Source: Spirochaetales bacterium (GTDB lineage Bacteria > Spirochaetota > Spirochaetia > DSM-27196 > SLST01). From it: a DNA stretch of 64,000 bases. A program made the position numbers and the translations under genes. The notes below the pieces were generated by a model that did not search any database, had not been told where the DNA came from, and saw only the letters and a program-made list of their open reading frames with translations. The DNA is taken from contig JBKHII010000003.1 of assembly GCA_046538735.1 (NCBI GenBank), forward strand, positions 18,458 through 82,457, given 5' to 3'. This document shows, in pieces, positions 21,450 through 36,755 of this stretch. Numbering within the stretch: position 1 is the stretch's first letter; each line of letters opens with the position of its first letter.

Positions 21450-22472
21450 TTACACGTAGATATCTTCGTAGATGGTTTCGAGAGCCGGCTCGTCGCTCGA
21501 CTCCGCAAAATCCACGGCATCCTGGACGATCGCCTTCACTTCATCGTCGACCTTCTTGTACTCGTCGTCCGTGAGCACCTTCGCGTCCTGCATTCCGGCC
21601 TTGAGGATCAGGATCGGATCCTGCTGCTGATACGCCTCGAGCTCGTCGCGAGTGCGATACTTAGCGGGATCGCTCATCGAGTGTCCCTTGTACCGGTAGG
21701 TCTTCGCGTCGATCAGGATCGGCGTCTGTTCCTTCTTGGCGCGCTCTGCCGCGGCCTTGATGCCGTCGTGCATCGCGATGACGTTCATGCCGTCCAGCGT
21801 GATCCCGGGCATTCGGAAGCCGGTAGCCTTCACGGCGAAGTCCTCGATCGCAGAGACACGCTTCACGGCGGTGCCCATGCCGAACTGGTTGTTCTCAACG
21901 ATGTAGATCGCAGGCAGATTCCAGACCGACGCGAGATTCAGCGACTCGTGGAACGCTCCCTGGTGAATCGCCCCGTCACCGAAGAAGCAGAGCGTCACAC
22001 CGGTCTCCTTCTGATTCATCACCTTGCTCCGGTACATCTGCGCGAAGGCGACGCCGGTTGCCATGGGGATCTGCGCGCCGACGATACCGTTCCCGCCAAG
22101 AAAGTGCTTCTCGGCGCTGAACATGTGCATGGAGCCGCCCTTTCCGCGCGAACAGCCGGTGATCCTGCCGTAGAGCTCCGCCATGATCGCACGCGGCTCC
22201 ATGCCGACAGCGAGCGCGTGCCCGTGGTCGCGATACGCCGTGAGCACGTAATCGTGCGCGAGGTCGAGCGCGCCAATCGCCCCCACGGCGACCGCCTCCT
22301 GACCGTTGTAGAGGTGGCAGAATCCGCCGATCTTTCGCAGGCCGTACATCTGCGCGGCCTTCTCCTCGAATCTCCTGATCAGCATCATCTGCCGAAGGAG
22401 CGGCATCAGGAACTCCTTCTTGTGGTTCCCAACGCCCTTCACCGTCTGTACTCGTGTTTCAACATCAGCCAT
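21450..22472 (-). CDS. pdhA: Pyruvate dehydrogenase E1 component alpha subunit
   Basis: 'GFCHLYNGQEAVAVG', 'GKGGSMH', TPP motif 'FFGDGAIHQGAFHESLNLASVWNLPAIYIVENNQFGMGT', phospholoop-like 'YRYKGHSMSDP'. Confidence 0.95.
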   Translation of the reverse strand: MADVETRVQTVKGVGNHKKEFLMPLLRQMMLIRRFEEKAAQMYGLRKIGGFCHLYNGQEAVAVGAIGALDLAHDYVLTAYRDHGHALAVGMEPRAIMAELYGRITGCSRGKGGSMHMFSAEKHFLGGNGIVGAQIPMATGVAFAQMYRSKVMNQKETGVTLCFFGDGAIHQGAFHESLNLASVWNLPAIYIVENNQFGMGTAVKRVSAIEDFAVKATGFRMPGITLDGMNVIAMHDGIKAAAERAKKEQTPILIDAKTYRYKGHSMSDPAKYRTRDELEAYQQQDPILILKAGMQDAKVLTDDEYKKVDDEVKAIVQDAVDFAESSDEPALETIYEDIYV

Positions 22473-22917
22473 TGCCGCCCCCCAGCTTGATCTCGTGACG
22501 CTCTCCGGTCATCGGCCTCATGTACCGCAGCTCCTCGATGCTCGTCTCGAGCACGACCATCTTCCCCTCGTCCGGGTTCAGGTGCCAGAACGTCGCGAGG
22601 TGACCGCCGATCGCCTCGAGCACCTCGGCTTTCACGGACGGATTGTCGATCGCCTGCATGGGCCCACGGGCGATGACGATCTCGTCCAGGCTCTTGCTCT
22701 GCAGCATCCACTCTACGTGAGCATTGCCGTCGATCTCTTTCGCCTTGGGGAACTCGGGCGACGTTACCGCGTAGAGAAAGCCGTCACGTCCGCGGACGAT
22801 GCCCGGCGTCATCCACCGCATGTGCGGCCTTCCGTCCACGTCTACGGTCGCAAGCACTGCGATCTTGGAGTCTTCGAGGACACGCTCCAAGGTGTCCAGC
22901 ATTGATCTTGAGTCCAT
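22465..22917 (-). CDS. Pyridoxamine 5'-phosphate oxidase-like / general stress protein 26 family protein
   Basis: Start at ATG 22917, directly after AAGGAGGAGGAG. 'KIAVLATVDVDGRPHMRWM' and a split-barrel-like pattern. Overlaps the pdhA start by 8 nt. The track ORF's upstream 104 codons lie in the promoter region. Confidence 0.65.
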   Translation of the reverse strand: MDSRSMLDTLERVLEDSKIAVLATVDVDGRPHMRWMTPGIVRGRDGFLYAVTSPEFPKAKEIDGNAHVEWMLQSKSLDEIVIARGPMQAIDNPSVKAEVLEAIGGHLATFWHLNPDEGKMVVLETSIEELRYMRPMTGERHEIKLGGGNG

Positions 22918-23067
22918 CTCCTCCTCCTTGGTTGCGCACGCGACGCAGAGAACCGTTCGATTGCATGGTCGTGCAGTCGCGATGCGTTCAATGTAATAAT
23001 CCCGTTTTCGATCGCCACCTTTTCCTTTGCCCGTGCCCTGGCGAGGGAGTATCATGGAATTGAGCCT

Positions 23068-23095
23068 TTGCACCTCGCATATTCTTGAGTATAAT
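23068..23095 (+). promoter_or_regulatory. Putative sigma70-type promoter of the nqr operon (TTGCAC - 16 nt - TATAAT)
   Basis: TTGCAC at 23068-23073 and TATAAT at 23090-23095. Register verified against the overlapping track ORF translation. Predicted TSS near 23102, at the left edge of the palindrome. Confidence 0.45.
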
Positions 23096-23098
23096 GCT

Positions 23099-23134
23099 AA
23101 TGGATACCGAAGTATCGATTCTTCGGTATCCATT
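23099..23134. repeat. 36-nt near-perfect palindrome (17 of 18 pairs) centred on ATCGAT
   Basis: AATGGATACCGAAGTATCGATTCTTCGGTATCCATT. The only mismatch is T/T at positions 15/22. It lies between the divergent pdh-type and nqr operons. Confidence 0.9.
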
Positions 23135-23139
23135 GTCAA
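23111..23139 (-). promoter_or_regulatory. Putative sigma70-type promoter for the PNPOx-like/pdh operon (TTGACA - 17 nt - GATACT)
   Basis: The minus strand reads cTTGACAatggataccgaagaatcGATACTtcgg. A perfect -35 lies at 23139-23134 and the -10 at 23116-23111. Predicted TSS near 23104. Confidence 0.4.
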
Positions 23140-23170
23140 GGAGCCGAGGTGAGGTCGACGATTCCATCCT

Positions 23171-24184
23171 ATGGGGGACGCTGTGATCGGTAACATCTTC
23201 CAGAAGCAGCAAGTCATGAGGCGCGTCATCGCGACGCTGCTCCTGCTGCTCGTCTTTGCGACCTACCTCTACGGTTGGCGCGTTCTCGCCATCAATGCCA
23301 TGGTAATCGCGCTCGCCGTGCTGACAGAGTGGCTCTTCGAACGGACGCGCGGAAAGAAAGTGAGCGAGGCGGTGCTCGTGACGGCACTCCTCTACGGACT
23401 CTCGCTCCCACCGCTCGTTCCGTTCTGGGTGGCGGCGATCGGGATCGTGTTCGCCGTGGCTATCGGCAAGGAAGTATTCGGCGGTTTCGGGCGCAACGTC
23501 TTCAATCCGGCGATCACCGGGCGCCTGTTCGTCTACATCAGCTTTCCGACCCTGCTGCAGCGCAGTTGGGCGGAGCCGAATGTTCCAGGCTTCGTCACGG
23601 ACCTGCTCGGCCTCAATGCAGACGCGATCTCGACGGCGACCCCGCTCGATGTGATGCGCTCCGGGGCCGCGGAGACGCTCGACTTCCGGCAGCTCTTCTT
23701 CGGCTTCCGGATGGGCAGTATGGGCGAGAGCGCGATCTGGCTCATCGTGATCGCGGCGATCTACCTCATCGTGACCAAGACCGCGCAATGGCGACTGATC
23801 TTCTCGACGTTTCTCACCGCAACGCTCCTCCACGTCGTGTTCTACTTCGCCGGTCTGACGCAGATCGTCCCGCACCTCGCGCTCATGAGCGGGAGCATTC
23901 TCTACGTCTCGGTCTTCATGACCACCGACCCAATCAGCGCGCCCAACAAACCGGGCAGCCAGTGGCTCTACGGCGTGATCATCGGAGGCACCACGGTCCT
24001 CATCCGCGTCTTCGCCGGTTTCCCCGAAGGGACCAGCTTCGGAATACTCCTCGGCAACACCTTCGCGAGTCTCCTGGACGAGATCATGCCGAAGCAGAAG
24101 CCGAAGAAGAAGCCGGCGAAGAAACCCGCGTCCGGATCGGGCTCCGCGAAACCGGCCACCGCAACCACGGGAGGGGACCAGTAG
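23171..24184 (+). CDS. nqrB: NqrB/RnfD-family membrane subunit of an Na+(or H+)-translocating redox pump
   Basis: 'GGFGRNVFNPAITGR' and the flavin-attachment-type motif 'DAISTATPLD'. At 337 aa it is RnfD-like in length. Lys/Pro-rich C-terminal tail 'KQKPKKKPAKKPASGSGSAKP'. Confidence 0.85.
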   Translation: MGDAVIGNIFQKQQVMRRVIATLLLLLVFATYLYGWRVLAINAMVIALAVLTEWLFERTRGKKVSEAVLVTALLYGLSLPPLVPFWVAAIGIVFAVAIGKEVFGGFGRNVFNPAITGRLFVYISFPTLLQRSWAEPNVPGFVTDLLGLNADAISTATPLDVMRSGAAETLDFRQLFFGFRMGSMGESAIWLIVIAAIYLIVTKTAQWRLIFSTFLTATLLHVVFYFAGLTQIVPHLALMSGSILYVSVFMTTDPISAPNKPGSQWLYGVIIGGTTVLIRVFAGFPEGTSFGILLGNTFASLLDEIMPKQKPKKKPAKKPASGSGSAKPATATTGGDQ

Positions 24185-24820
24185 ATGAACAAGGAAGGAA
24201 CGGGCTACACCATCGTTTTTATCTTCATCGTGAGCTTCGCGTTCGTCTTCCTGCTCTCCATGACGAACCAGGTGACGATCGAACGCGTGCGACTCAACCA
24301 GGAGATCTCGCGACAAGGCGCAATCCTCTCGGCGATGAGCATCGAAGCGACCGGCATCGAGGAGATCCAGTCGGAGTACGAGCGAGTGACCGGAGACAGG
24401 GACGACGGCCTCTACGTTGCCCGGGTGGACGGCGAGACGGTGTACGCGAAGGAGTTTGCCGGCGCGGGCTTGTGGGGCACGATCAGCGGTGTCATCGCGG
24501 TCACGGCGGACTTCGATCGAATCGTCGGTCTTGAAATCGTGGAAGACAATGAAACGCCGGGACTCGGCGGGCGTATCAACGAGCCGTGGTTCAAGAACCA
24601 GTTCGAGGGCGAACGGATCCCACAAGACGGCATCGATGTGGAGGCGGTCGAGGGCGAAGGCGACCCGAACCCGGACAATGGAGTCGTGGACGGCATCACC
24701 GGCGCAACGCGCACGAGCGACGCGATGGAAGCGATCGTGAACAACCAGCTCGAGGAGCTTCGTTCGCAGGATGTGCGAGACAGGCTCCAAGAGCTTGCAG
24801 CTTCAGGAGGAAACGCATGA
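24185..24820 (+). CDS. nqrC: NqrC/RnfG-family FMN-binding subunit
   Basis: N-terminal TM helix. FMN_bind domain with 'ETPGLGGRI' and the covalent-FMN motif 'GITGATRTSDAM'. 211 aa. Confidence 0.85.
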   Translation: MNKEGTGYTIVFIFIVSFAFVFLLSMTNQVTIERVRLNQEISRQGAILSAMSIEATGIEEIQSEYERVTGDRDDGLYVARVDGETVYAKEFAGAGLWGTISGVIAVTADFDRIVGLEIVEDNETPGLGGRINEPWFKNQFEGERIPQDGIDVEAVEGEGDPNPDNGVVDGITGATRTSDAMEAIVNNQLEELRSQDVRDRLQELAASGGNA

Positions 24821-25434
24821 GCGACGTTGACACCAGACCGGGAGCGATCCTCAAGAACAATCTCTGGGACAACAACCCGATCTTCATGCAGGTGCTCGGC
24901 ATCTGTTCGGCGTTGGCGGTGACGAATCTGCTGACGAACACGGCGATCATGACGATCGGTGTGACGTTCGTTACCGGAATGTCGAGCCTCACCGTCTCGC
25001 TCCTGAAAAGGTTCATGCCGCGCAAGGTCCGGATGATCGTCCAGACGCTGATCATCGCTTTCTACGTGATCATCGTGGACATCGTGCTCAAGGCGTACCT
25101 GCCGGAAATCAGCAGGAACCTCGGCCCCTACGTGGGCCTGATCATCACGAACTGCATCATCATGGGCCGTGCCGAGGCGTTCGCGCAGAGCAACCCTCCG
25201 ATTCCGAGCCTCTGGGACGGAATCACCAGTGGACTCGGCTACATGGGAGTCCTGATGGTGATCGCAGTCTTCCGCGAGCTCCTGGGATTCGGGACGCTCT
25301 TCGGGTTCCAGATCTTGCCCGATGCCTTCGTCCCCTGGACGATCATGGTGATGCCGCCGAGCGCGTTCTTCCTCCTCGGGATCATCATCTGGATCGGCAA
25401 GTCGGTCATGAACAGAGAAGGAGCCGCAGCATGA
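24817..25434 (+). CDS. nqrD: NqrD/RnfE-family membrane subunit
   Basis: Start at ATG 24817 (ATGA overlap). 'LWDNNPIFMQVLGICSALAVT' and 'GLIITNCIIMGRAEAFA' are hallmark NqrD/RnfE segments. Confidence 0.9.
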   Translation: MSDVDTRPGAILKNNLWDNNPIFMQVLGICSALAVTNLLTNTAIMTIGVTFVTGMSSLTVSLLKRFMPRKVRMIVQTLIIAFYVIIVDIVLKAYLPEISRNLGPYVGLIITNCIIMGRAEAFAQSNPPIPSLWDGITSGLGYMGVLMVIAVFRELLGFGTLFGFQILPDAFVPWTIMVMPPSAFFLLGIIIWIGKSVMNREGAAA

Positions 25435-26021
25435 CACCGGTACTCAACCCATTCTCGCTGTTTTTTGCCTCGATATTCACGAGCAACATCTTGCTCGCAA
25501 ACTTCCTGGGGATGTGCTCGTTCATATCGATTTCCAAAGACATGAAGAGCTCGAACGGTCTCGGGCTCGCCGTGACGGTGGTGCTCACCATCACGACCGC
25601 GGTCAACTGGCTCGTGCTTCAGATGCTCGAGACGCTCGGTCTCGTTTACCTGAGGTACATCGTGTTCATCATCGTGATCGCCGCGGTGGTGCAGATGCTC
25701 GAGATGATCCTGGACCGCGTCAGTCAGACGCTCTACATGAATCTCGGTATCTTCCTGCCGCTCATCACCGTGAACTGCGCGATCCTCGGAGTCTCGCTCT
25801 TCATGGAGATCCGCGACTACAGCTTCTGGCAGTCGGTCATCTTCGGCCTCGGAAGCGGTCTCGGGTGGTGGCTCGCGATCATGGCACTGAGCGCCATCCG
25901 GAAGAAGACCGAGCGGGCTCCCGTCCCGCCGGGCCTGAAGGGGGCCGGCATCACGATGATCACGATCGGCTTCATGGCGATGGCCTTCATCGGCTTCAGC
26001 GGCATGCTTCAGGTGCAGTAA
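25431..26021 (+). CDS. nqrE: NqrE/RnfA-family membrane subunit
   Basis: 'FTSNILLANFLGMCSF' and 'GIFLPLITVNCAILGVSLF' are typical of NqrE/RnfA. ATGA overlap with nqrD. Confidence 0.9.
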   Translation: MTPVLNPFSLFFASIFTSNILLANFLGMCSFISISKDMKSSNGLGLAVTVVLTITTAVNWLVLQMLETLGLVYLRYIVFIIVIAAVVQMLEMILDRVSQTLYMNLGIFLPLITVNCAILGVSLFMEIRDYSFWQSVIFGLGSGLGWWLAIMALSAIRKKTERAPVPPGLKGAGITMITIGFMAMAFIGFSGMLQVQ

Positions 26022-26030
26022 GGAGCGTAC

Positions 26031-27170
26031 ATGGAGAACACACCCGCCATCATTCAGGCACTCGTCGCGCCCCTCTCGATCGCCGGTATCAGCGCGGTTC
26101 TCGGAGCGCTTATCTCCATCACGGACAAGATCGTCAACAACTACGGCGAGCTCGTCATTGACATCAACAACGGGAAACGCGAGCTGAACATCCGGGGCGG
26201 AGCGCCGCTCCTTCAGACGCTCGCTGAGAGCGGCATCTTCGTCCCGAGCGCGTGTGGCGGGCGAGGGAGCTGCGGCGCGTGCAAGGTCAAGGTGCTGAGC
26301 GATGTCGGTCCACACCTGCCGACGGAGCTTCCGTATCTGGAAAAGGAAGAGATGGAGGAAAACGTCCGCCTCTCCTGTCAGATCAAGGTGAAGGAAAACC
26401 TGCAGGTCGAGATTCCGGAAGCCCTCTTCAACGTTCAGGAGTACGAAGGCGTCGTTGAGCGAATCCGGGACGTCACTCACGACATCAAAGAAGTCTACGT
26501 GAAACTGCCGGAGGGAAAGGAGGTGAGCTTCGCCTGCGGCCAATACGGCCAGCTCGAAGTCCCGCCCTACGGCAAGGTCAAGAGCGCAACGCAGCGTGCC
26601 TACTCAATGAGCTCCGCTCCGAGCGACAAGAACCATCTCGAGTTCCTCGTCCGGCTGGTCCCCGGCGGTATCGTCACGAGCTACGTTCACGAGCACCTGC
26701 AGGAGGGCCGGAAGGTCAAGGTGATCGCCCCGTTCGGAGATTTCAACGTGAAGGACACGGGCGCCACGATGATCTGCGTCGCCGGCGGCTCCGGAATGGC
26801 GCCGTTCAAGAGCATCTTCCAGAACATGATCGAAAGCGGCGAGATCGAGCGTCGAGAGGTCTGGTATTTCTTCGGGGCGAGGACGAAGAAGGATCTGTTC
26901 TACACGGACTGGCTCGAAGAGCTCGACCGGAAGTACGAGAAGTTCCACTTCATCGCCGCATTGAGCGAGCCGCAGGAGGAGGACAACTGGACCGGAGCGA
27001 CCGGCCTCATTACCGAGGTCCTCGCCGGCTACCTCACGGACCACATCAACCGGGAGCAGCCGCTCGAGGGCTACCTCTGTGGAAGCCCCGGAATGCTTGA
27101 CGCCTGTATGGCGGTCATGAGAGAATTTCAGATGTCGGAAGACAAGATCTACTTCGACAAGTTCGCATAG
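26031..27170 (+). CDS. nqrF: NqrF-type NADH-oxidising subunit (TM anchor + 2Fe-2S ferredoxin + FAD/NAD(P)H reductase)
   Basis: N-terminal TM helix. Plant-type cluster 'CGGRGSCGACKV...LSCQ'. FNR-like 'RAYSMSS', 'GGSGMAPF', 'CGSPGM'. Confidence 0.9.
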   Translation: MENTPAIIQALVAPLSIAGISAVLGALISITDKIVNNYGELVIDINNGKRELNIRGGAPLLQTLAESGIFVPSACGGRGSCGACKVKVLSDVGPHLPTELPYLEKEEMEENVRLSCQIKVKENLQVEIPEALFNVQEYEGVVERIRDVTHDIKEVYVKLPEGKEVSFACGQYGQLEVPPYGKVKSATQRAYSMSSAPSDKNHLEFLVRLVPGGIVTSYVHEHLQEGRKVKVIAPFGDFNVKDTGATMICVAGGSGMAPFKSIFQNMIESGEIERREVWYFFGARTKKDLFYTDWLEELDRKYEKFHFIAALSEPQEEDNWTGATGLITEVLAGYLTDHINREQPLEGYLCGSPGMLDACMAVMREFQMSEDKIYFDKFA

Positions 27171-27180
27171 GAGGTGCCTT

Positions 27181-27651
27181 GTGAAGATGTCACCCGAGTA
27201 CGCGAAGGCACAGGCGAACATGCAGCCCGGAGTCATCACTTCAGACGGCTTTCTCGGTCACGACACGCGACCGATCATGGACATCATCTCCGAAGACGAA
27301 GCGAAGATGGGGCAGCTTGGGCTCGAATTCGACGAGGTTGTCGAGACGATGCGTCACCTGATGGAAGAGGGGCGCAAGGGCCTCGGTGAGCCCGTGACGG
27401 TTGACGGCACCTGGATCGTGCAGGTCGACGAGGCTCGCGGATTCCTCGCGTCGCCATTCGAGGACGGTATCTACCGCAAGGTCAATGCGCAGGTTGCGGT
27501 CGCAGAGAACGGCCACCCCTCGGAGAGGCAGTTGCTCTTCTCGGAGCTGAGCCTTCACCTGATCGAGAAGTACCACTTTCTGCAGGGCTACGGATCGCCC
27601 TTCCGACTCGACCCGCACCGGATCAAGGACGTGCTGTTTCCCGAGCGCTGA
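27181..27651 (+). CDS. Hypothetical soluble protein, last gene of the nqr operon
   Basis: 156-aa ORF starting (GTG 27181 or ATG 27187) just after AGGAGG, 10 nt from the nqrF stop. I recognise no family motif. Confidence 0.5.
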   Translation: MKMSPEYAKAQANMQPGVITSDGFLGHDTRPIMDIISEDEAKMGQLGLEFDEVVETMRHLMEEGRKGLGEPVTVDGTWIVQVDEARGFLASPFEDGIYRKVNAQVAVAENGHPSERQLLFSELSLHLIEKYHFLQGYGSPFRLDPHRIKDVLFPER

Positions 27652-27739
27652 GCCGCTCGGGGATTCGACCGCTCTGCGACCGAAACGACGGGTCGGGCGG
27701 GTTGTGACAAAATCCCCCAATTCTCCATTACTCAAGATA

Positions 27740-27768
27740 TTGCACTTCTCAGGGAACACCCCTATACT
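27740..27768 (+). promoter_or_regulatory. Putative promoter TTGCAC - 17 nt - TATACT, 11 nt before the ATG of the GGDEF/EAL gene
   Basis: TTGCAC at 27740-27745, TATACT at 27763-27768, ATG at 27780. No Shine-Dalgarno in between. Confidence 0.45.
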
Positions 27769-27779
27769 GAGCACTGACC

Positions 27780-29858
27780 ATGGAACAAGATCGAATCCTC
27801 ATCGTTGAGGATGAGCGAATCATAGCCCTCGATCTCAAGCGCAGACTCGAGCGGTTCGGCTATCACGTGGTAGGCACGGCGTCCGAGGCCGACGAGGCGA
27901 TCGAGCTCGCGCGTCGCGAGCTCCCGGATCTCGTCCTCATGGACATCATGCTGTCCGGCGGATCGGACGGAATCGCGGCGGCTACCGAGATCCGGAAGCA
28001 ACTCCGCATCCCGGTGGTGTTTCTGACGGCGTACGCCGATGACACGACGATTCAGCGAGCGAAGATCGCCGAACCGGTCGGCTACGTGCTGAAGCCGTTC
28101 AAGGAGCGCGAGCTCCACACCACGATCGACATCGGCCTGTACAAGAGCCGCGTGGACCGGGAGCTGCTGCGTCAGGAGCGGCTCTTCTCTTCGATCCTCC
28201 GGAGCGCCGGCGACGCAATCGTCGCGACGAACGCGCAGGGAATCATCCAGTTCATGAACCCGGTCGCGGAGACGCTGACGGGATGGCGCGAGGACGAGGC
28301 GAGAGGCACGGAGATCAACGCGGTCGTGTCGCTGGTCGCGGACACGACCGACGAGACCGTGACGATACCGGTCGCCCCGGATCTCCAGGGACGCGGAGCC
28401 CGCGTATTCGAGTCGGTCTATCTCCAGAACAAGTTCGGTGCCCGCATTCACATCGAGGGCAGCGTCGCGGAGATCCGAGGCGACCGCGGCGAGTTCGAGG
28501 GGCTTACCCTCGCCTTCCACGACATCACGGATATCAAGCGCCTCAACGAAACGGTGAGTTACCAAGCGAGCCATGACGCGCTGACCGGCCTGATCAACCG
28601 CGACGAGTTCGCCACGCGGCTCGAGCGTGTGGCGCAGGCGACCGAACAATCGAACGGCAAGCACACGTTCCTCTACCTTGACATCGATCAGTTCAAGGTC
28701 ATCAACGACGTCTGTGGTCATCTCGCCGGAGACGAGCTGCTGTGCCAGACGTCGAACGCGATCCAGGAGTTCATGGACGATGAGACGGTAGTCGGCCGGA
28801 TCGGCGGCGACCAGTTCGGTATCATCGTGATGGACAAAGACGCCGAGACAAGCGCACGGATAGCTCGGGGTCTCGTAGCGCACCTCAACACCAAGTTCGT
28901 CTGGAAAGAGAACAGCTATAACGTCACGGTGAGCGTCGGTGCCGCTCCGATCTCCCGGGGAAACAGTGCGGTCAACGATATCCTCGCCGCGGGAGACGAC
29001 GCGTGTACCCTCGTCAAGGAACACGGCGGCAACGGGGTTGAGGTTTACAAAACCTCCGACTTCGTCTTCCTCCGGCGCAAGGGCGAGATGCAGTGGATCG
29101 CGCGGCTCACGGAGGCGATCGAGAACGATCAGTTCGCGCTCTTCCACCAGGTCATCGAGCCGCTGGGACGCGCCGAGGAAGCCGGTGAGACGAAGTACGA
29201 GATCCTCCTCAGGCTTCGCGACGCGGACGGCGGGCTCGTCTCTCCGGGCCAGTTCATAACCGCGGCCGAGCGCTACAAGCTCATGCCTTCGATCGACCGG
29301 TGGGTGGTCGCCGCCGCCTGCCGCTACGTGTCGCTCGCAAAGGATCGCGGTATCGATACGCCGGTGATCTGCGTGAACCTGAGCGGGGCCTCGCTCGCTG
29401 ACGACGCGTTCCTCGATCACATCCTGCTGATGTTCGACCGCTACCAGGTCGAGGCATCCGCCTTCTGCCTCGAGATCACGGAGACGAGCGCCATCCAGAA
29501 CTTCAGTCGTGCGATCAGCTTCGTCACCCGGCTCCGCGACGCCGGCGCGACCTTCGCGCTCGACGACTTCGGGAACGGCTTCTCCTCCTTCTCGTACCTG
29601 AAGAGACTGCCCGTCGACTATCTGAAGATCGACGGTTCATTCGTCAAGGATATCGAGCACGATCCGATCGACCTCGCGATGGTGAAGGCGGTCAACAGCA
29701 TCGGACACACCATGGGCATGAAGACGATCGCGGAGTACGTCCACAATCACGCGATCCGGGAGATGCTCCGCGACATAGGAGTCGACTACGCGCAGGGCTT
29801 CGATGTCTCGCGACCGACTCCGCTCCCCCACGCAGAAGAGCTGCTCGCCGGCGACTGA
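27780..29858 (+). CDS. Response regulator with PAS, GGDEF and EAL domains (c-di-GMP turnover)
   Basis: REC 'ILIVEDE..LVLMDIMLSG..VLKP'. PAS 'FSSILRSAGDAIVATNAQGIIQFMNPVAETLTGW'. Cyclase domain with 'RIGGDQFGI' (GGDQF variant). EAL domain 'LEITETS', 'ALDDFGNGFSSFSYL', 'LKIDGSFV', 'QGF'. Confidence 0.9.
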   Translation: MEQDRILIVEDERIIALDLKRRLERFGYHVVGTASEADEAIELARRELPDLVLMDIMLSGGSDGIAAATEIRKQLRIPVVFLTAYADDTTIQRAKIAEPVGYVLKPFKERELHTTIDIGLYKSRVDRELLRQERLFSSILRSAGDAIVATNAQGIIQFMNPVAETLTGWREDEARGTEINAVVSLVADTTDETVTIPVAPDLQGRGARVFESVYLQNKFGARIHIEGSVAEIRGDRGEFEGLTLAFHDITDIKRLNETVSYQASHDALTGLINRDEFATRLERVAQATEQSNGKHTFLYLDIDQFKVINDVCGHLAGDELLCQTSNAIQEFMDDETVVGRIGGDQFGIIVMDKDAETSARIARGLVAHLNTKFVWKENSYNVTVSVGAAPISRGNSAVNDILAAGDDACTLVKEHGGNGVEVYKTSDFVFLRRKGEMQWIARLTEAIENDQFALFHQVIEPLGRAEEAGETKYEILLRLRDADGGLVSPGQFITAAERYKLMPSIDRWVVAAACRYVSLAKDRGIDTPVICVNLSGASLADDAFLDHILLMFDRYQVEASAFCLEITETSAIQNFSRAISFVTRLRDAGATFALDDFGNGFSSFSYLKRLPVDYLKIDGSFVKDIEHDPIDLAMVKAVNSIGHTMGMKTIAEYVHNHAIREMLRDIGVDYAQGFDVSRPTPLPHAEELLAGD

Positions 29859-33537: not shown

Positions 33538-34095
33538 GTGGATGTGAAACGAATTTACCTCATGGGCATGAAGCACACCGGAAAGAGCGTACACGGTAAG
33601 GCGATCGCCGCCGCGCTGGGAAGGAAGTTCTGCGATACCGACGCGCTGATCCAGGAGCTCGACTCCACGGAGACGGGCATGCGCCGGACGGTCCGCGACA
33701 TCTACATCGAGGACGGAGCCGAACGGTTCCACCGGCTCGAGATCGCGGCGTGTCGCCTGGTAACCGAGCGCGAAAGCCGCCTGGTCGTTGCAACCGGCGG
33801 AGGACTCTGCGACAATCCGGAGGCGCTCTCCACGACCGAGGGCTCGCTCCGCGTGCATCTGGTGGACTCGTTGCAGTCGATCGCGTCGCGGATCTTCCGC
33901 CGCGGCATTCCGGCCTTCCTCCACACCTCGGACGAGGCGGTGGCGCGCAGGCGCTTCCGTGCGCTCTACGACCGGAGAACCGTCGCCTACGACGAGACCG
34001 CGGACATACGCGTCGATCTGACCGACCTCTCGATCCAGGAGGCCCAGTCCAGGATCATCAACGCCATCGAGGAGTACCAACGTGCCGGGAAGTAG
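33538..34095 (+). CDS. aroK: Shikimate kinase
   Basis: 'IYLMGMKHTGKSVHGKAIA..LGRKFCDTDALI' (P-loop plus the shikimate-binding D-x-D region) and 'VVATGGG'. Overlaps aroC. GTG start 8 nt after a TATACT box (33524-33529). Confidence 0.75.
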   Translation: MDVKRIYLMGMKHTGKSVHGKAIAAALGRKFCDTDALIQELDSTETGMRRTVRDIYIEDGAERFHRLEIAACRLVTERESRLVVATGGGLCDNPEALSTTEGSLRVHLVDSLQSIASRIFRRGIPAFLHTSDEAVARRRFRALYDRRTVAYDETADIRVDLTDLSIQEAQSRIINAIEEYQRAGK

Positions 34096-35137
34096 CTTTG
34101 GTCACGCGTTTCGGGTGACGACCTTCGGGGAATCACACGGCGGAGCCGTCGGTGTGGTCGTAGACGGGGTTACTCCTCAGCTGGAGCTCTCGGCCGAAGA
34201 CGTCCAGGAGCAGCTCGATCGCCGCAAACCGGGGCAGAGTTTTATCACGACCCCGCGAAACGAGCCTGACACGGTCAACATCCTCTCGGGCGTCTTCGAG
34301 GGACGGACGACGGGAACCCCGCTCCTGATGATTCTCTACAACTCGGATGCACAGCCCTCCGCGTACGACGAGATCAAGTCGATGTTCCGGCCGGGCCACG
34401 CCGACTTCACCTACCTCAAGAAGTACGGCATCCGGGACTATCGCGGAAGCGGACGCGCGAGCGGACGAGAAACCGCCGGACGAGTCGCCGCAGGCGCGGT
34501 CGCGCGTAAGCTGCTGCGACGGAGGGGCGTCTCGGTCGTCGCGTATACGCTTCGTGCGGCAGGAATCCAGTGTGAGCGCTACGACCCGGATCAGATCGAG
34601 AACAACATGCTTCGCGCGTGCGACCCGGACGCCGCCGAACGGATGTTGGAGCGGATCGCCGAGATCAAGGAGCGCGAGGACAGCGTGGGCGGAGTCGTGG
34701 AGTGCCGTGTCTCCGGCGTTGAGCCGGGAATCGGCGAGCCGGTCTTTGATAAGCTGGACGCGGAGCTGGCCCACGCGATGCTCAGCGTGGGCGCGGTCAA
34801 GGGGATCGAGTTCGGCGCCGGCTTCGCGGCGGCGGACATGACCGGCAGCGAGCACAACGACGAGATGGGAGCCGGAGGCTTCCTCACGAACAACGCCGGA
34901 GGAATCGTGGGAGGCATATCCTCGGGAGCGGAGATCGTCTTCCGGGTGGCGGTGAAGCCGGTCAGCTCGATCTCAAGAGAGCAGCGGACCGTTGACGTGG
35001 ACGGAAAGGAACGGACGATTCGCACCGAGGGCAGACACGACGCATGCATCTGTCCGCGAATCGTCCCGGTGGTTGAAGCTATGGCCTGCCTCGTGATCGA
35101 AGACCACTACAAGCGGCAGGCAGCGCTGTTCGCGTAG
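34082..35137 (+). CDS. aroC: Chorismate synthase
   Basis: 'FGHAFRVTTFGESHGGAVG', 'RPGHADFTY..KYGIRDYRGSGRASGRETA', 'GGISSG', 'GRHDACI'. Confidence 0.95.
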   Translation: MPGSSFGHAFRVTTFGESHGGAVGVVVDGVTPQLELSAEDVQEQLDRRKPGQSFITTPRNEPDTVNILSGVFEGRTTGTPLLMILYNSDAQPSAYDEIKSMFRPGHADFTYLKKYGIRDYRGSGRASGRETAGRVAAGAVARKLLRRRGVSVVAYTLRAAGIQCERYDPDQIENNMLRACDPDAAERMLERIAEIKEREDSVGGVVECRVSGVEPGIGEPVFDKLDAELAHAMLSVGAVKGIEFGAGFAAADMTGSEHNDEMGAGGFLTNNAGGIVGGISSGAEIVFRVAVKPVSSISREQRTVDVDGKERTIRTEGRHDACICPRIVPVVEAMACLVIEDHYKRQAALFA

Positions 35138-35173: not shown

Positions 35174-35335
35174 CTACTCTTCCGGCGAGAAGTCTTCCTT
35201 CAGGGCGCCGCACATCGGACAAACCCAATCCTCGGGAAGATCGGCGAACGCCGTTCCGGGCTCGATACCGCCGTCCGGATCGCCTTCGGCCGGATCGTAG
35301 ATATAGCCACACACGTTGCATACATACTTCTGCAT
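35174..35335 (-). CDS. Rubredoxin
   Basis: Start at ATG 35335 (M33 of the track ORF), after AGGAAGGAG. '[12 protein letters not shown]...DWVCPMCGA' carries the two CxxC pairs. 53 aa. Confidence 0.9.
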
Positions 35336-35394: not shown

Positions 35395-36225
35395 TCACGC
35401 CGATCGTGGACCTAAGGCCGAGTCGAGCCACGCGGTTTCATCCAGCATCGGGTGAATCCCCGGCCTCGTGAGCGCGAAGTCGTAACGCACGGGGTCTCCC
35501 GGAGCGATCGCGCGCATCGCGTCGGTGATCCCCCGGGTCACCGCGAGCGTCGCCTGCTTTCGGGTGGTCAGCCCGAGCCGCCGCGCGACTGTGAGCACGT
35601 GCGCGTCCACCGGGACGAGGAGCGCCTCGGGACCGATACACGACCAGCCACCGGGGTCGATCTCGTCGCGGCGCACCATCCAGCGAGCGTAGAGCAGCAG
35701 ACGTTTGCAGGCGCTCCGACGATCGATGCGCGGCAACAGGATGGAACGGTCGAGTCTCCCGTTGGATCCCTCAACGACCGCTCGTACAAGCGCCTCCAGC
35801 CCCGCAAGCAGCCCGTCGCGGCCGCCCGCAGCCGTCAGACCGGTGGCGAAGCACCGTTCGACCGAGCCGTACGAGCGCAGCACCTCCCTGATGCCAAGGA
35901 GCAACCCTGCCAACTGGTCGGCATCGAAGAAACGGTAGCGGAAGCCGTCCGACACACGGAGCACCTCGGACTCGGTCCGCTTCTCGAGCGCCGCCGCCGG
36001 CGACGCACCGCCCGGGGCGAGACGGACGAGGACCCGGCGTACCGCGGCGAGGATTGCGTTGACGCGACCAAGCGCGAGGCTCGAGGCGATCAGCCCCACT
36101 ACTTCACGATCCGCCGGCGAGTCGTACTCGCGCACGATCTCGAGCGGATCCGGTGAGATGTACCGCGGGCGGTGAAATGCGGCGTAGGCGCGTTCGCAGA
36201 TGCGCCGGAGCTCGACGGGAGACAA
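35395..36225 (-). CDS. DUF2400/TIGR02757-like protein (HhH-GPD-like '[16 protein letters not shown]' motif)
   Basis: Start proposed at TTG 36225, 11 nt after AGGAGG and just past the upstream stop. Family assignment is from memory of the 'P(L/V)DtHv..a..LGL' pattern and overall size. Confidence 0.5.
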
Positions 36226-36227
36226 GC

Positions 36228-36755
36228 CTATCCGGACCTCCTGCCCAGATGCGCGAAGATGAGCACGAGACCTACGATCACGAGCAGGACGGGCCACCAC
36301 ACGGCGACGAACGACGAGAAGTCTACGCGCACGAGCTCGAGCGAGAACGGCAGGAATATCAGAGAGAGGATCGTCATCGCGCCGCCGGGCACGGTGAACG
36401 TCACGCGCGACGCGCCCTGCTTGCGAAACCCGTACGCGAGAAAGGCGACGCCGATTACGGTCATGAAGAGCGGCCAGATCCTGCCCAGTTCGACCTGCAG
36501 CGCGGTCGCGGCGAGCAACAGAATCAGACCGGCGAGCAGCAGGCTGGTCCCTATGAAGACGTAGTAGTCCGGCCCGGATTGAAAGACCCGGAAGTAGAGA
36601 AGCACCAGGCCGACGATGATCGGCACCAGCGGCCAGAGGCTGATGAAACGGTGCAGGTAGCCCGCCGTCCAGAGCAGCAGAACGCCTCCGAAGAGGACGA
36701 AGAAGACGCCGATGATGGCCAGCTTGTTCGGAAACCGCGGCGACCTTTCTTGCAT
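36228..36755 (-). CDS. Small polytopic membrane protein, unknown function
   Basis: 175 aa, 5-6 hydrophobic helices. The ATG lies 6 nt after a TACTAT box, so no room for an SD. Confidence 0.55.
   Translation of the reverse strand: MQERSPRFPNKLAIIGVFFVLFGGVLLLWTAGYLHRFISLWPLVPIIVGLVLLYFRVFQSGPDYYVFIGTSLLLAGLILLLAATALQVELGRIWPLFMTVIGVAFLAYGFRKQGASRVTFTVPGGAMTILSLIFLPFSLELVRVDFSSFVAVWWPVLLVIVGLVLIFAHLGRRSG

Follow-up and report, generated by a model that had tools for sequence, protein, structure and literature searches.

The closest described relatives of the six-gene operon examined here, which lies in a 64,000-nucleotide stretch of DNA from a Spirochaetales bacterium (contig JBKHII010000003.1, positions 18,458 to 82,457; this whole stretch is called the window), are the NADH:quinone oxidoreductase that translocates Na+ (Na+-NQR, or Nqr), the Rnf complex, and nqr-type operons that lack nqrA. 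In the accessible text of Reyes-Prieto et al. 2014 (PMC4014512), Nqr is a six-subunit enzyme and no nqr operon is reported in Thermotogae; the accessible sections of a 2025 review (PMC12174285) make no mention of a form without NqrA. Such an A-less NqrBCDEF form is noted in excerpts of three genome papers, in T. thermarum and T. lettingae of Thermotoga/Pseudothermotoga (PMC4148951, 2014), in Clostridium ultunense (PMC5924567, 2018), and in Ca. Izimaplasma ZiA1 (PMC6256511), and all three excerpts call the reaction partner besides NADH unknown. Partial NQR/RNF-like systems have been defined, according to the available part of the paper, by the presence, in one protein, of PF03116 at the N terminus and PF00175 at the C terminus (Meheust et al. 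2021, PMC8238504). The available portion of a study on flavinylation in Treponema pallidum (PMC4436053) mentions a putative Nqr-type pump in Treponema denticola, the NqrC orthologue of which served as a test substrate.

At positions 23171 to 27651 of the window, six same-strand open reading frames (ORFs) were found in the order B-C-D-E-F-T, with B to F corresponding to Nqr subunits, F being a short NqrF, and T encoding a small soluble protein of an unnamed family (Table 1). The reading that we favor, and hold to be rather probable, is that the locus belongs to a distinct and widespread Rnf/Nqr lineage, NqrBCDEF-T, which lost A, gained T as a peripheral subunit associated with F, and would work as an NADH-driven pump with an acceptor other than NAD+. 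The A-less arrangement is already in print, and the sixth gene, T, appears to be new: no description of it, of the breadth of the clade, or of its phylogenetic position was found in the literature, most subscription journals lying outside the search.

An nqr operon without nqrA

The initial annotation, made from the sequence without database searches, had described a B-C-D-E-F series joined by ATGA overlaps, opening with B after a divergent region and followed, 10 nucleotides (nt) past nqrF, by an ORF of 156 amino acids (aa) preceded by AGGAGG. Overlaps of 4 nt were found at C/D and D/E, where the coordinates require them to read ATGA; at the other two junctions, B and C abut without overlap and E and F are 9 nt apart. 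B does start behind a divergent stretch of ~250 nt, and the 10-nt gap between F and T was as described, with AGGAGG at 27169-27174, 6 nt 5' of the GTG of T. Independent contigs (Logan; four runs from two studies) span 22400-27900 and bridge both the upstream/B and the F/T junctions. Therefore, the gene order is real, and an assembly artefact was excluded.

F had been annotated as an Nqr-type subunit, and the membrane-anchored 2Fe-2S and FAD/NADH modules expected of one were found, comprising Fer2, FAD_binding_6, and NAD_binding_1 domains. Its score with the nqrF model TIGR01941 was 290.8 bits, just under the cut-off of 295, and the match fell into two stretches, with model positions ~175-200 missing. 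The four Cys of the 2Fe-2S motif are present, within the CGGRGSCGAC quoted in the initial annotation, as are RAYS and GGSGMAP. D passed both nqrD equivalogs (249.9 bits against a cut-off of 235, and 248.5 against 244.85). For E, the nqrE score (Table 1) compares with a cut-off of 247.55 and with 201.7 bits for rnfA. Two Cys were read from the sequence of each of these two subunits, those of D lying in inner helices.

B and C had been described as Rnf-like, a reading that gained no support beyond their lengths and a marginal score of B. B matched PF03116 at 271 bits, PF00175 being absent from B and present in the separate F. Among NCBIfam models, B made a marginal pass of the rnfD subfamily cut-off (208.5 bits against 207.05) and scored 197-210 bits with nqrB models (cut-offs 350-414), the first ~110-120 positions of which it left unmatched, the matches beginning at positions 112-121. 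C, with domain PF04205, scored best with NqrC models, at 96-110 bits versus 67-71 for RnfG, all below cut-off. The lengths of both proteins and the rnfD score of B thus fit the description, whereas comparison with solved structures favored Nqr for both: B scored 137 bits with Vibrio cholerae NqrB (over residues 129-410) versus 118 with RnfD, and C scored 70.8 bits with NqrC (3lwx) versus 48.9 with RnfG. The trees described below also place both subunits on the Nqr side. The flavinylation-type motif STATPLD is present in B, within the quoted AISTATPLD, and GITGATRTS was found in C. B retains an Asp aligned with D397 of V. cholerae NqrB and has Ala-Val at the positions aligned with G140/G141, residues that we take to be functionally important. 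Its Lys/Pro-rich tail, also noted initially, was confirmed in the translation (24089-24184, residues ~307-337) and is low in complexity and varies, the alignments of close relatives ending at residue ~306-310 in some cases and reaching 337 in others.

As annotated, no RnfB, RnfC, NqrA, or ApbE gene adjoins the operon: none of the six products matched an rnfC or rnfB model, and the single ApbE gene of the genome sits on a different contig. The further suggestion that nqrA may be encoded elsewhere was not borne out. In the organism's own genome (3.14 Mb in 130 contigs, 91.4% complete), the nqrA model TIGR01936 had no match, and a mixed NqrA/NqrA-like/RnfC profile matched only two RnfC genes (501 and 456 bits), each part of its own Rnf operon on contig C74 (~150299-154419, plus strand, and ~69420-65795, minus strand). 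Together with NqrBCDEF-T, the organism therefore carries three putative Rnf/Nqr-type complexes. NqrM also gave no match in the genome, in a search that was uninformative, the control being without a match anywhere as well.

The absence of nqrA was found to extend across the carriers. Among 401 Spirochaetota genomes, 80 contained an nqrF match at E ≤ 1e-40; 27 of these were sorted as canonical type (~410-430 aa, 494-696 bits, plus one fragment) and 53 as short type (366-388 aa, with the match split around nqrF model positions 175-200). nqrA exceeded its cut-off in 27 of the 401 genomes, 25 of them canonical-F genomes, and in none of the 53 short-F genomes, which include seven single-contig assemblies that are 98-100% complete (G210, G332, G380, G030, G094, G317, and G323). 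It likewise exceeded its cut-off in none of the 10 operon-bearing genomes examined from other phyla.

Searching species representatives with the short-F alignment brought up at least 594 stretches resembling NqrF; not all of these need be of the short type, as canonical NqrF may fit the search patterns too. The best 80 of these loci come from about a dozen phyla, with members of Spirochaetota, Bacillota/Clostridia, Thermotogota (Marinitoga), Fusobacteriaceae, Verrucomicrobiota and Pontiellaceae, Cloacimonadota, WOR-3, TA06, Planctomycetota, Desulfobacterota-type lineages, Fibrobacterota, and Tenericutes. An RnfC- or NqrA-like ORF, sought by blastp or profile, was found in none of the 80; B was present in 71, and 57 of these 71 had at least 1500 nt of sequence upstream.

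Phylogenies were built from A-less operons, four canonical Spirochaetota NqrABCDEF operons, four operons with an NqrA-like protein (type 3), one or two with RnfC and part of NqrF (type 4), and nine Rnf operons, among them Escherichia coli Rsx and the organism's own two. In the main tree (IQ-TREE; concatenated B+D+E, 46 rows by 721 columns, rooted on Rnf), Rnf was separated from all others with support of 100/100, and the A-less operons with T, including that of the window, formed a clade at 100/100. Type 3 and canonical Nqr were paired at 100/95, and the A-less clade joined that pair at 98/95. Quick trees of the core subunits agreed on the separation from Rnf: in a paralog-rooted D/E tree, the F-bearing lineages split from Rnf at 100 in both halves, the B tree separated Rnf at 98 and recovered the A-less clade at 99, and in the C tree RnfG sat on a long branch, split off with support of 100. 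The F tree, which was unrooted, resolved three groups: canonical, type 3, and A-less F. The core subunits therefore fall with Nqr where Rnf and Nqr divide, yet outside the canonical Nqr clade. Because RnfC, NqrA, or an NqrA-like protein occurs in each of the neighboring lineages, loss of A in the clade of the window is the simplest reading, and A-lessness is most simply viewed, on these topologies, as a derived loss, with a separate loss in Tenericutes. The idea of an evolutionary intermediate, raised in the initial annotation, does not agree with the nesting of the clade among lineages that bear A or RnfC.

Three groups of related operons deserve separate description. Type 3 operons have the order A'-B-C-D-E-F (L038:1385-6974, L039:1216-6727, L040:1449-6958, and L136:2767-8280, the last on the minus strand). 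For the greater part of the protein, their A' resembles NqrA (180-200 bits with NF003761, which is below cut-off); at its C terminus it keeps a 2x[4Fe-4S] domain that corresponds to positions ~360-432 of the rnfC model, so that it looks, from these matches, like a form between RnfC and NqrA. In type 4 operons (L041:1415-6170 and L040:15156-18997, the latter stretch ending within or just past D), a true RnfC (253 bits, above cut-off) accompanies B-C-D-E. The F' of L041 has 149 aa and consists only of the NqrF membrane anchor and 2Fe-2S domain (nqrF model positions 5-122); the operon seems to encode an Rnf-like complex in which the ferredoxin half of NqrF has taken over from RnfB. The Tenericutes loci (L118, L120, L123, and L124) are A-less and without T. 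Their B, D, and E group with type 4 (100/99 in the B+D+E tree) and their F with the other A-less operons, a discordance that suggests either a separate origin of A-lessness or exchange of F.

Gene T and its linkage to nqrF

The 156-aa ORF had been put forward as a possible accessory or replacement peripheral subunit, and the first part of that proposal gained support from its conservation. T orthologues showed 74% mean column identity (n = 15). F was directly upstream in 15 of the 18 Spirochaetales loci found with T, the remaining three lying at contig starts with no room, and B-C-D-E-F-T was intact in all 12 sampled loci from 11 Spirochaetota families. T was detected in 52 of the 401 Spirochaetota genomes, one copy in each, and the organism's own genome likewise has a single copy. 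In 45 of the 52, T followed F on one contig at a distance of at most ~1.1 kb; of the others, four had T on another contig of a fragmented assembly and three had no F match at the threshold. T was found in none of the 27 canonical-type genomes and adjoins no type 3 operon. In the best 80 loci, T lay within 150 nt after F in 64, and in a further one (L097) it is cut by a run of N; its state could not be assessed in seven, owing to contig ends or a cut F. With 65 of these 80 loci, from about a dozen phyla, the A-less operon with T is thereby shared among anaerobic bacteria of many phyla.

The reciprocal search, started from three distant T relatives, yielded 64 loci, with F directly upstream in 59, no room in two, and no F in three. 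Counting only loci with room, F was upstream in 59 of 62, and the three exceptions were all from Polyangium. The pairing also persisted where the operon was split: F-T pairs without BCDE were found in seven loci (L137, L147, L161, L180, L194, L202, and L205). In the genome of L137, B-C-D-E is on another contig (L144) with no F behind E, and L137:5343-7102 encodes a membrane-anchored short NqrF followed, 20 nt apart, by a 213-aa fusion of T with rubredoxin. T therefore travels with F in the absence of BCDE.

Two sets of loci were unusual. In L097:8096-9340 and L145, from a WOR-3 chromosome, T is interrupted by a run of N, past which unrelated sequence follows, and the remainder is found 1.37 Mb away behind another such run, most likely a masking or scaffolding artefact. 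In Polyangium (L207:5640-6977, L208, and L210), T-like sequence without NqrF lies in a region of high GC content, where it forms the C-terminal third of an open frame of 445 aa; this frame and five neighboring ORFs had no Pfam match.

No Pfam or NCBIfam family matched T. When 1.84 billion cluster representatives were searched with a T profile, 777 matched at E ≤ 0.001 and 219 of these at E ≤ 1e-10, and most members stand alone with 145-165 aa. Across 81 family members, no Pfam family recurred and none matched DUF7919; the only hit at E ≤ 0.01 was Ac81 (E 0.0058), weak and at chance level. One relative (P0133) scored 23.6 bits with DUF7919, below the cut-off of 27, and no literature on DUF7919 was found. 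In the ESM Atlas, T relatives occurred only in clusters named "hypothetical protein." Residues that hardly vary across the family include one Asp, one Arg, one Lys, and a pair of His, together with the motif RG..P(C)PF/W.

The structure of T, proposed as a check in the initial annotation, was predicted with AlphaFold2 from the 81-sequence alignment, giving a confident model (predicted local distance difference test [pLDDT] 97.6, predicted template modeling score [pTM] 0.91) with three helices at the N terminus, an antiparallel sheet of four strands, and two helices at the C terminus. No clear neighbor was found among solved structures, the best values being E 0.19 with Foldseek against the PDB and Z 2.5 with VIA-align against 48,161 chains, which does not by itself prove a new fold. 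An earlier model of lower confidence (pLDDT 82.7) had given E 0.26 and Z 3.0. Homology of T to NqrA, NqrA-like proteins, or RnfC was rejected (hhalign probability 0.1%). The second part of the initial proposal, T as a replacement for NqrA, fares poorly on this count and also because T stays with F rather than with B in split operons. A complex prediction of B (residues 1-312), F (34-379), and T scored T at 0.00 and gave no answer, speaking neither for nor against binding.

Fusions of T to redox proteins were found with rubredoxin (P0056, P0080, and L137), rubrerythrin (P0046), and nitroreductase (P0067). Some other candidates, among them P0084, P0113, and P0148, look like gene-calling chimeras. 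In a metagenomic protein of 885 aa (P0005), a hydrophobic, signal-like segment at the N terminus precedes three T-like repeats in tandem, a context for the T domain that differs markedly from the operon.

Proposed working of NqrBCDEF-T and its alternatives

In the proposed working, NADH would be oxidized by the short NqrF with its FAD and 2Fe-2S center, and the electrons would move on from F by way of D/E, C, and B, following the route common to Nqr and Rnf that is described in the accessible part of the 2025 review (PMC12174285). D/E would hold an intramembrane Fe-S cluster through their four Cys, C and B would contribute flavins at their flavinylation motifs, and the redox loop would be coupled to the translocation of an ion, probably Na+. 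Electrons would then leave B for an acceptor that is not NAD+, because RnfC is absent, and that does not depend on NqrA. Most likely, T is a subunit dedicated to association with NqrF; that it is physically part of the enzyme we infer from its gene context. It would sit peripherally on NqrF as a docking or adaptor module for a soluble, higher-potential partner of the rubredoxin kind, a role weakly supported by the redox fusions and the persistent F-T pairs.

A bolder version would make the complex a third functional class, with T as a cytoplasmic output adaptor and founder of a new fold, and the whole an ion-pumping oxidoreductase for NADH and rubredoxin-type or other soluble high-potential acceptors. 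We regard this as doubtful. If true, quinone-free anaerobes could conserve energy while feeding rubrerythrin, flavodiiron proteins, and nitroreductase-like enzymes for the detoxification of O2 and peroxide.

Several observations weigh against the favored reading. A contact of T with F or with other subunits is an inference from sequence, and the adjacency of F and T in split operons may reflect a mere break between E and F, which would also be compatible with T contacting B. T has no recognizable cofactor motif, and the Cys of RG..PCPF/W, present in most family members, is Ser in the clade of this organism, which weakens a redox role for T itself. Its fusions are few, 4-5 of 150 listed representatives. 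T is absent despite room in 8 of the 80 loci, four of them from Tenericutes, and four of five genomes without an adjacent T have none anywhere; therefore, the core can exist without T. The A-less lineage of Tenericutes has neither A nor T. The trees represent canonical Nqr by only the four Spirochaetota operons and Rnf by only nine. Finally, the genome of this organism encodes a MenA-like prenyltransferase (165 bits, below cut-offs), and a quinone may be the acceptor. This gene lies outside any men operon, and no cytochrome bd was found in the genome. To our knowledge, Thermotogota, Clostridia, and Treponema-like spirochetes are generally regarded as quinone-free, and a quinone acceptor is hard to reconcile with such carriers.

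The MenA-like gene also fits an alternative in which T is only a structural stand-in that stabilizes NqrF or the cytoplasmic face as NqrA probably does, the enzyme remaining an NADH:quinone (menaquinone) oxidoreductase with its quinone site in B. The occurrence of T where A is missing, and its absence where A or an NqrA-like protein is present, would also be expected, and several carrier phyla, such as Planctomycetota and Desulfobacterota, commonly make menaquinone. However, B lacks the N-terminal region of NqrB and has Ala-Val in place of G140/G141, presumably of functional weight there, and the carriers regarded as quinone-free would be difficult to accommodate. Since T is not homologous to NqrA, and its fusions with redox proteins would be left unexplained, we consider a stand-in with retained quinone reduction somewhat unlikely; the Thermotoga paper, in its available part, also calls the acceptor unknown (PMC4148951).

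T could instead serve in assembly or maturation, either of the short NqrF or of the cofactors of the complex, without being part of the mature enzyme. Canonical nqr operons have apbE and nqrM downstream of nqrF, according to the accessible text of PMC12174285; neither adjoins this operon, and T is dispensable in some lineages. This alternative nevertheless appears improbable, as T matches the catalytic subunits approximately in its degree of conservation, is coupled to F in translation, judging by the narrow gap and strong ribosome-binding site, and has fusion partners that suit a working redox partner better than a chaperone.

Still less credence is given to a one-way electron exporter, in which the periplasmic flavins of C or B would reduce extracytoplasmic flavinylated reductases while T has a separate role with F. 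The operon has no output module of the A/RnfC type, and one-directional partial NQR/RNF-like systems have been proposed in the available part of PMC8238504. Those systems are NqrB fusions with an NAD-binding domain, unlike this operon, in which the whole of B is retained and conserved, including the flavin motif and the equivalent of D397; in addition, no conserved periplasmic reductase gene was seen beside the operon in the loci examined. That the locus is an Rnf-Nqr intermediate that never had A, as the RnfD-like length and marginal rnfD pass of B might suggest, or that nqrA was missed in a fragmented, incomplete assembly, is largely refuted and hardly credible in view of the B+D+E topology, the clade-wide A-lessness that includes the seven near-complete single-contig genomes, and the operon boundaries bridged by independent contigs.

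Flanking features and comparison with known systems

The features of the operon and its upstream region are collected in Table 1. A longer ORF call of 254 aa that overlaps the start of B is probably an over-extension of the divergent PNPOx-like gene. The promoter-like sequence has a counterpart in the relatives of the operon, where a -10-like box is found at the equivalent place. Right after this box, a conserved element, ATGGATAC-N5-GTATCGAT-N5-GTATCCAT, occurs in the window and upstream of B in L008-L021. GTATC-type half-sites are retained 5' of B in L008-L016 and a GTATCGAT/GTATCYAT core in L017-L021; the inner arm bases of the inverted repeat are variable, partly in a compensatory manner. 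The repeat is probably the operator of some regulator or a hairpin in the 5' untranslated region.

Table 1. Positions in the window of the operon genes and of features in the upstream region
Feature	Position	Strand	Basis or remark
B (NqrB/RnfD family), 337 aa	23171-24184	+	ORF call; PF03116
C (NqrC/RnfG family), 211 aa	24185-24820	+	FMN_bind domain, TGAT flavinylation motif
D (NqrD), 205 aa counted from ATG 24817	24817-25434	+	nqrD equivalogs above cut-off
E (NqrE/RnfA type), 196 aa	25431-26021	+	nqrE 223.4 bits
F (short NqrF), 379 aa	26031-27170	+	Transmembrane anchor; 2Fe-2S, FAD, and NAD(H) domains
T, soluble, 156 aa, GTG start, unnamed family	27181-27651	+	Conserved partner gene of short NqrF
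PNPOx-like (FMN-binding split-barrel) protein, 150 aa	22465-22917	-	Divergent neighbor of the operon
Promoter-like TTTGCA-17-TATAAT	23067-23095	+	Consensus scan, 10/12 matches; consensus match only
Perfect 14-bp inverted repeat AATGGATACCGAAG..CTTCGGTATCCATT around GTATCGAT	23099-23134		Between -10 box and start of B

A stand-alone rubredoxin gene was also observed in the window (35189-35329, minus strand, 87.7 bits), ~7.5 kb downstream of T and unlinked to the operon, between genes for chorismate synthase (34082-35137) and a DUF2400 protein (35395-36300). A second rubredoxin gene of the genome is on contig C83.

The results describe A-less NqrBCDEF as a coherent, ancient, and very widespread lineage, distinct from Rnf and from canonical Nqr. 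The question of the partner of NADH, open in genome papers since 2014, becomes testable through T, which offers a defined handle in its tight coupling to NqrF, its occasional rubredoxin-type fusion, and its confidently predicted, unmatched fold. The type 3 and type 4 variants provide concrete material on the transition from Rnf to Nqr.

With the canonical Na+-NQR of V. cholerae (7xk3, 8a1u), the window operon shares the NqrF-type NADH input module and a core of D/E, C, and B in which the flavinylation motifs and four Cys are present, including a D that passes the nqrD cut-off, and it falls on the same side of the Rnf/Nqr split. It differs in lacking NqrA and having T, in a B without the ~110-residue N-terminal part and a C that is ~45 residues shorter, in the segment missing from F (model positions ~175-200), and in the absence of apbE and nqrM from the operon; its clade is sister to canonical Nqr plus type 3 rather than inside canonical Nqr, as sampled by four operons. 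With Rnf it shares a homologous membrane core, the RnfD- and RnfG-like lengths of B and C, and the rnfD score of B, marginally over the cut-off. NqrF takes the place of RnfC and RnfB, however, and the core subunits branch outside the Rnf clade (100/100 for B+D+E).

Type 3 operons, from some Spirochaetota and one planctomycetote, resemble it in their F, which at 364 aa is short and has the same segment deleted, and in core identities of 37-55%, and differ in their own NqrA-like protein with 2x[4Fe-4S], in the lack of T, and in being sister to canonical Nqr. Unlike the partial NQR/RNF-like systems as defined in the available text of Meheust et al. 2021 (PMC8238504), the window operon has a B with PF03116 only and no PF00175 fusion. 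The window operon agrees with the published A-less NqrBCDEF in the gene order, BCDEF, and in having no NqrA in the genome, and loci from Marinitoga (L090) and Clostridium sp. (L101) are among the best 80; the accessible passages of the three papers (PMC4148951, PMC5924567, and PMC6256511) give five genes and do not mention a sixth. The Clostridium-type L101 and the Tenericutes loci are without T, the latter representing a separate lineage for B, D, and E. Judged by its genes, the window operon is a coherent third branch of putative NqrF-bearing pumps with its own, as yet unstudied partner protein.

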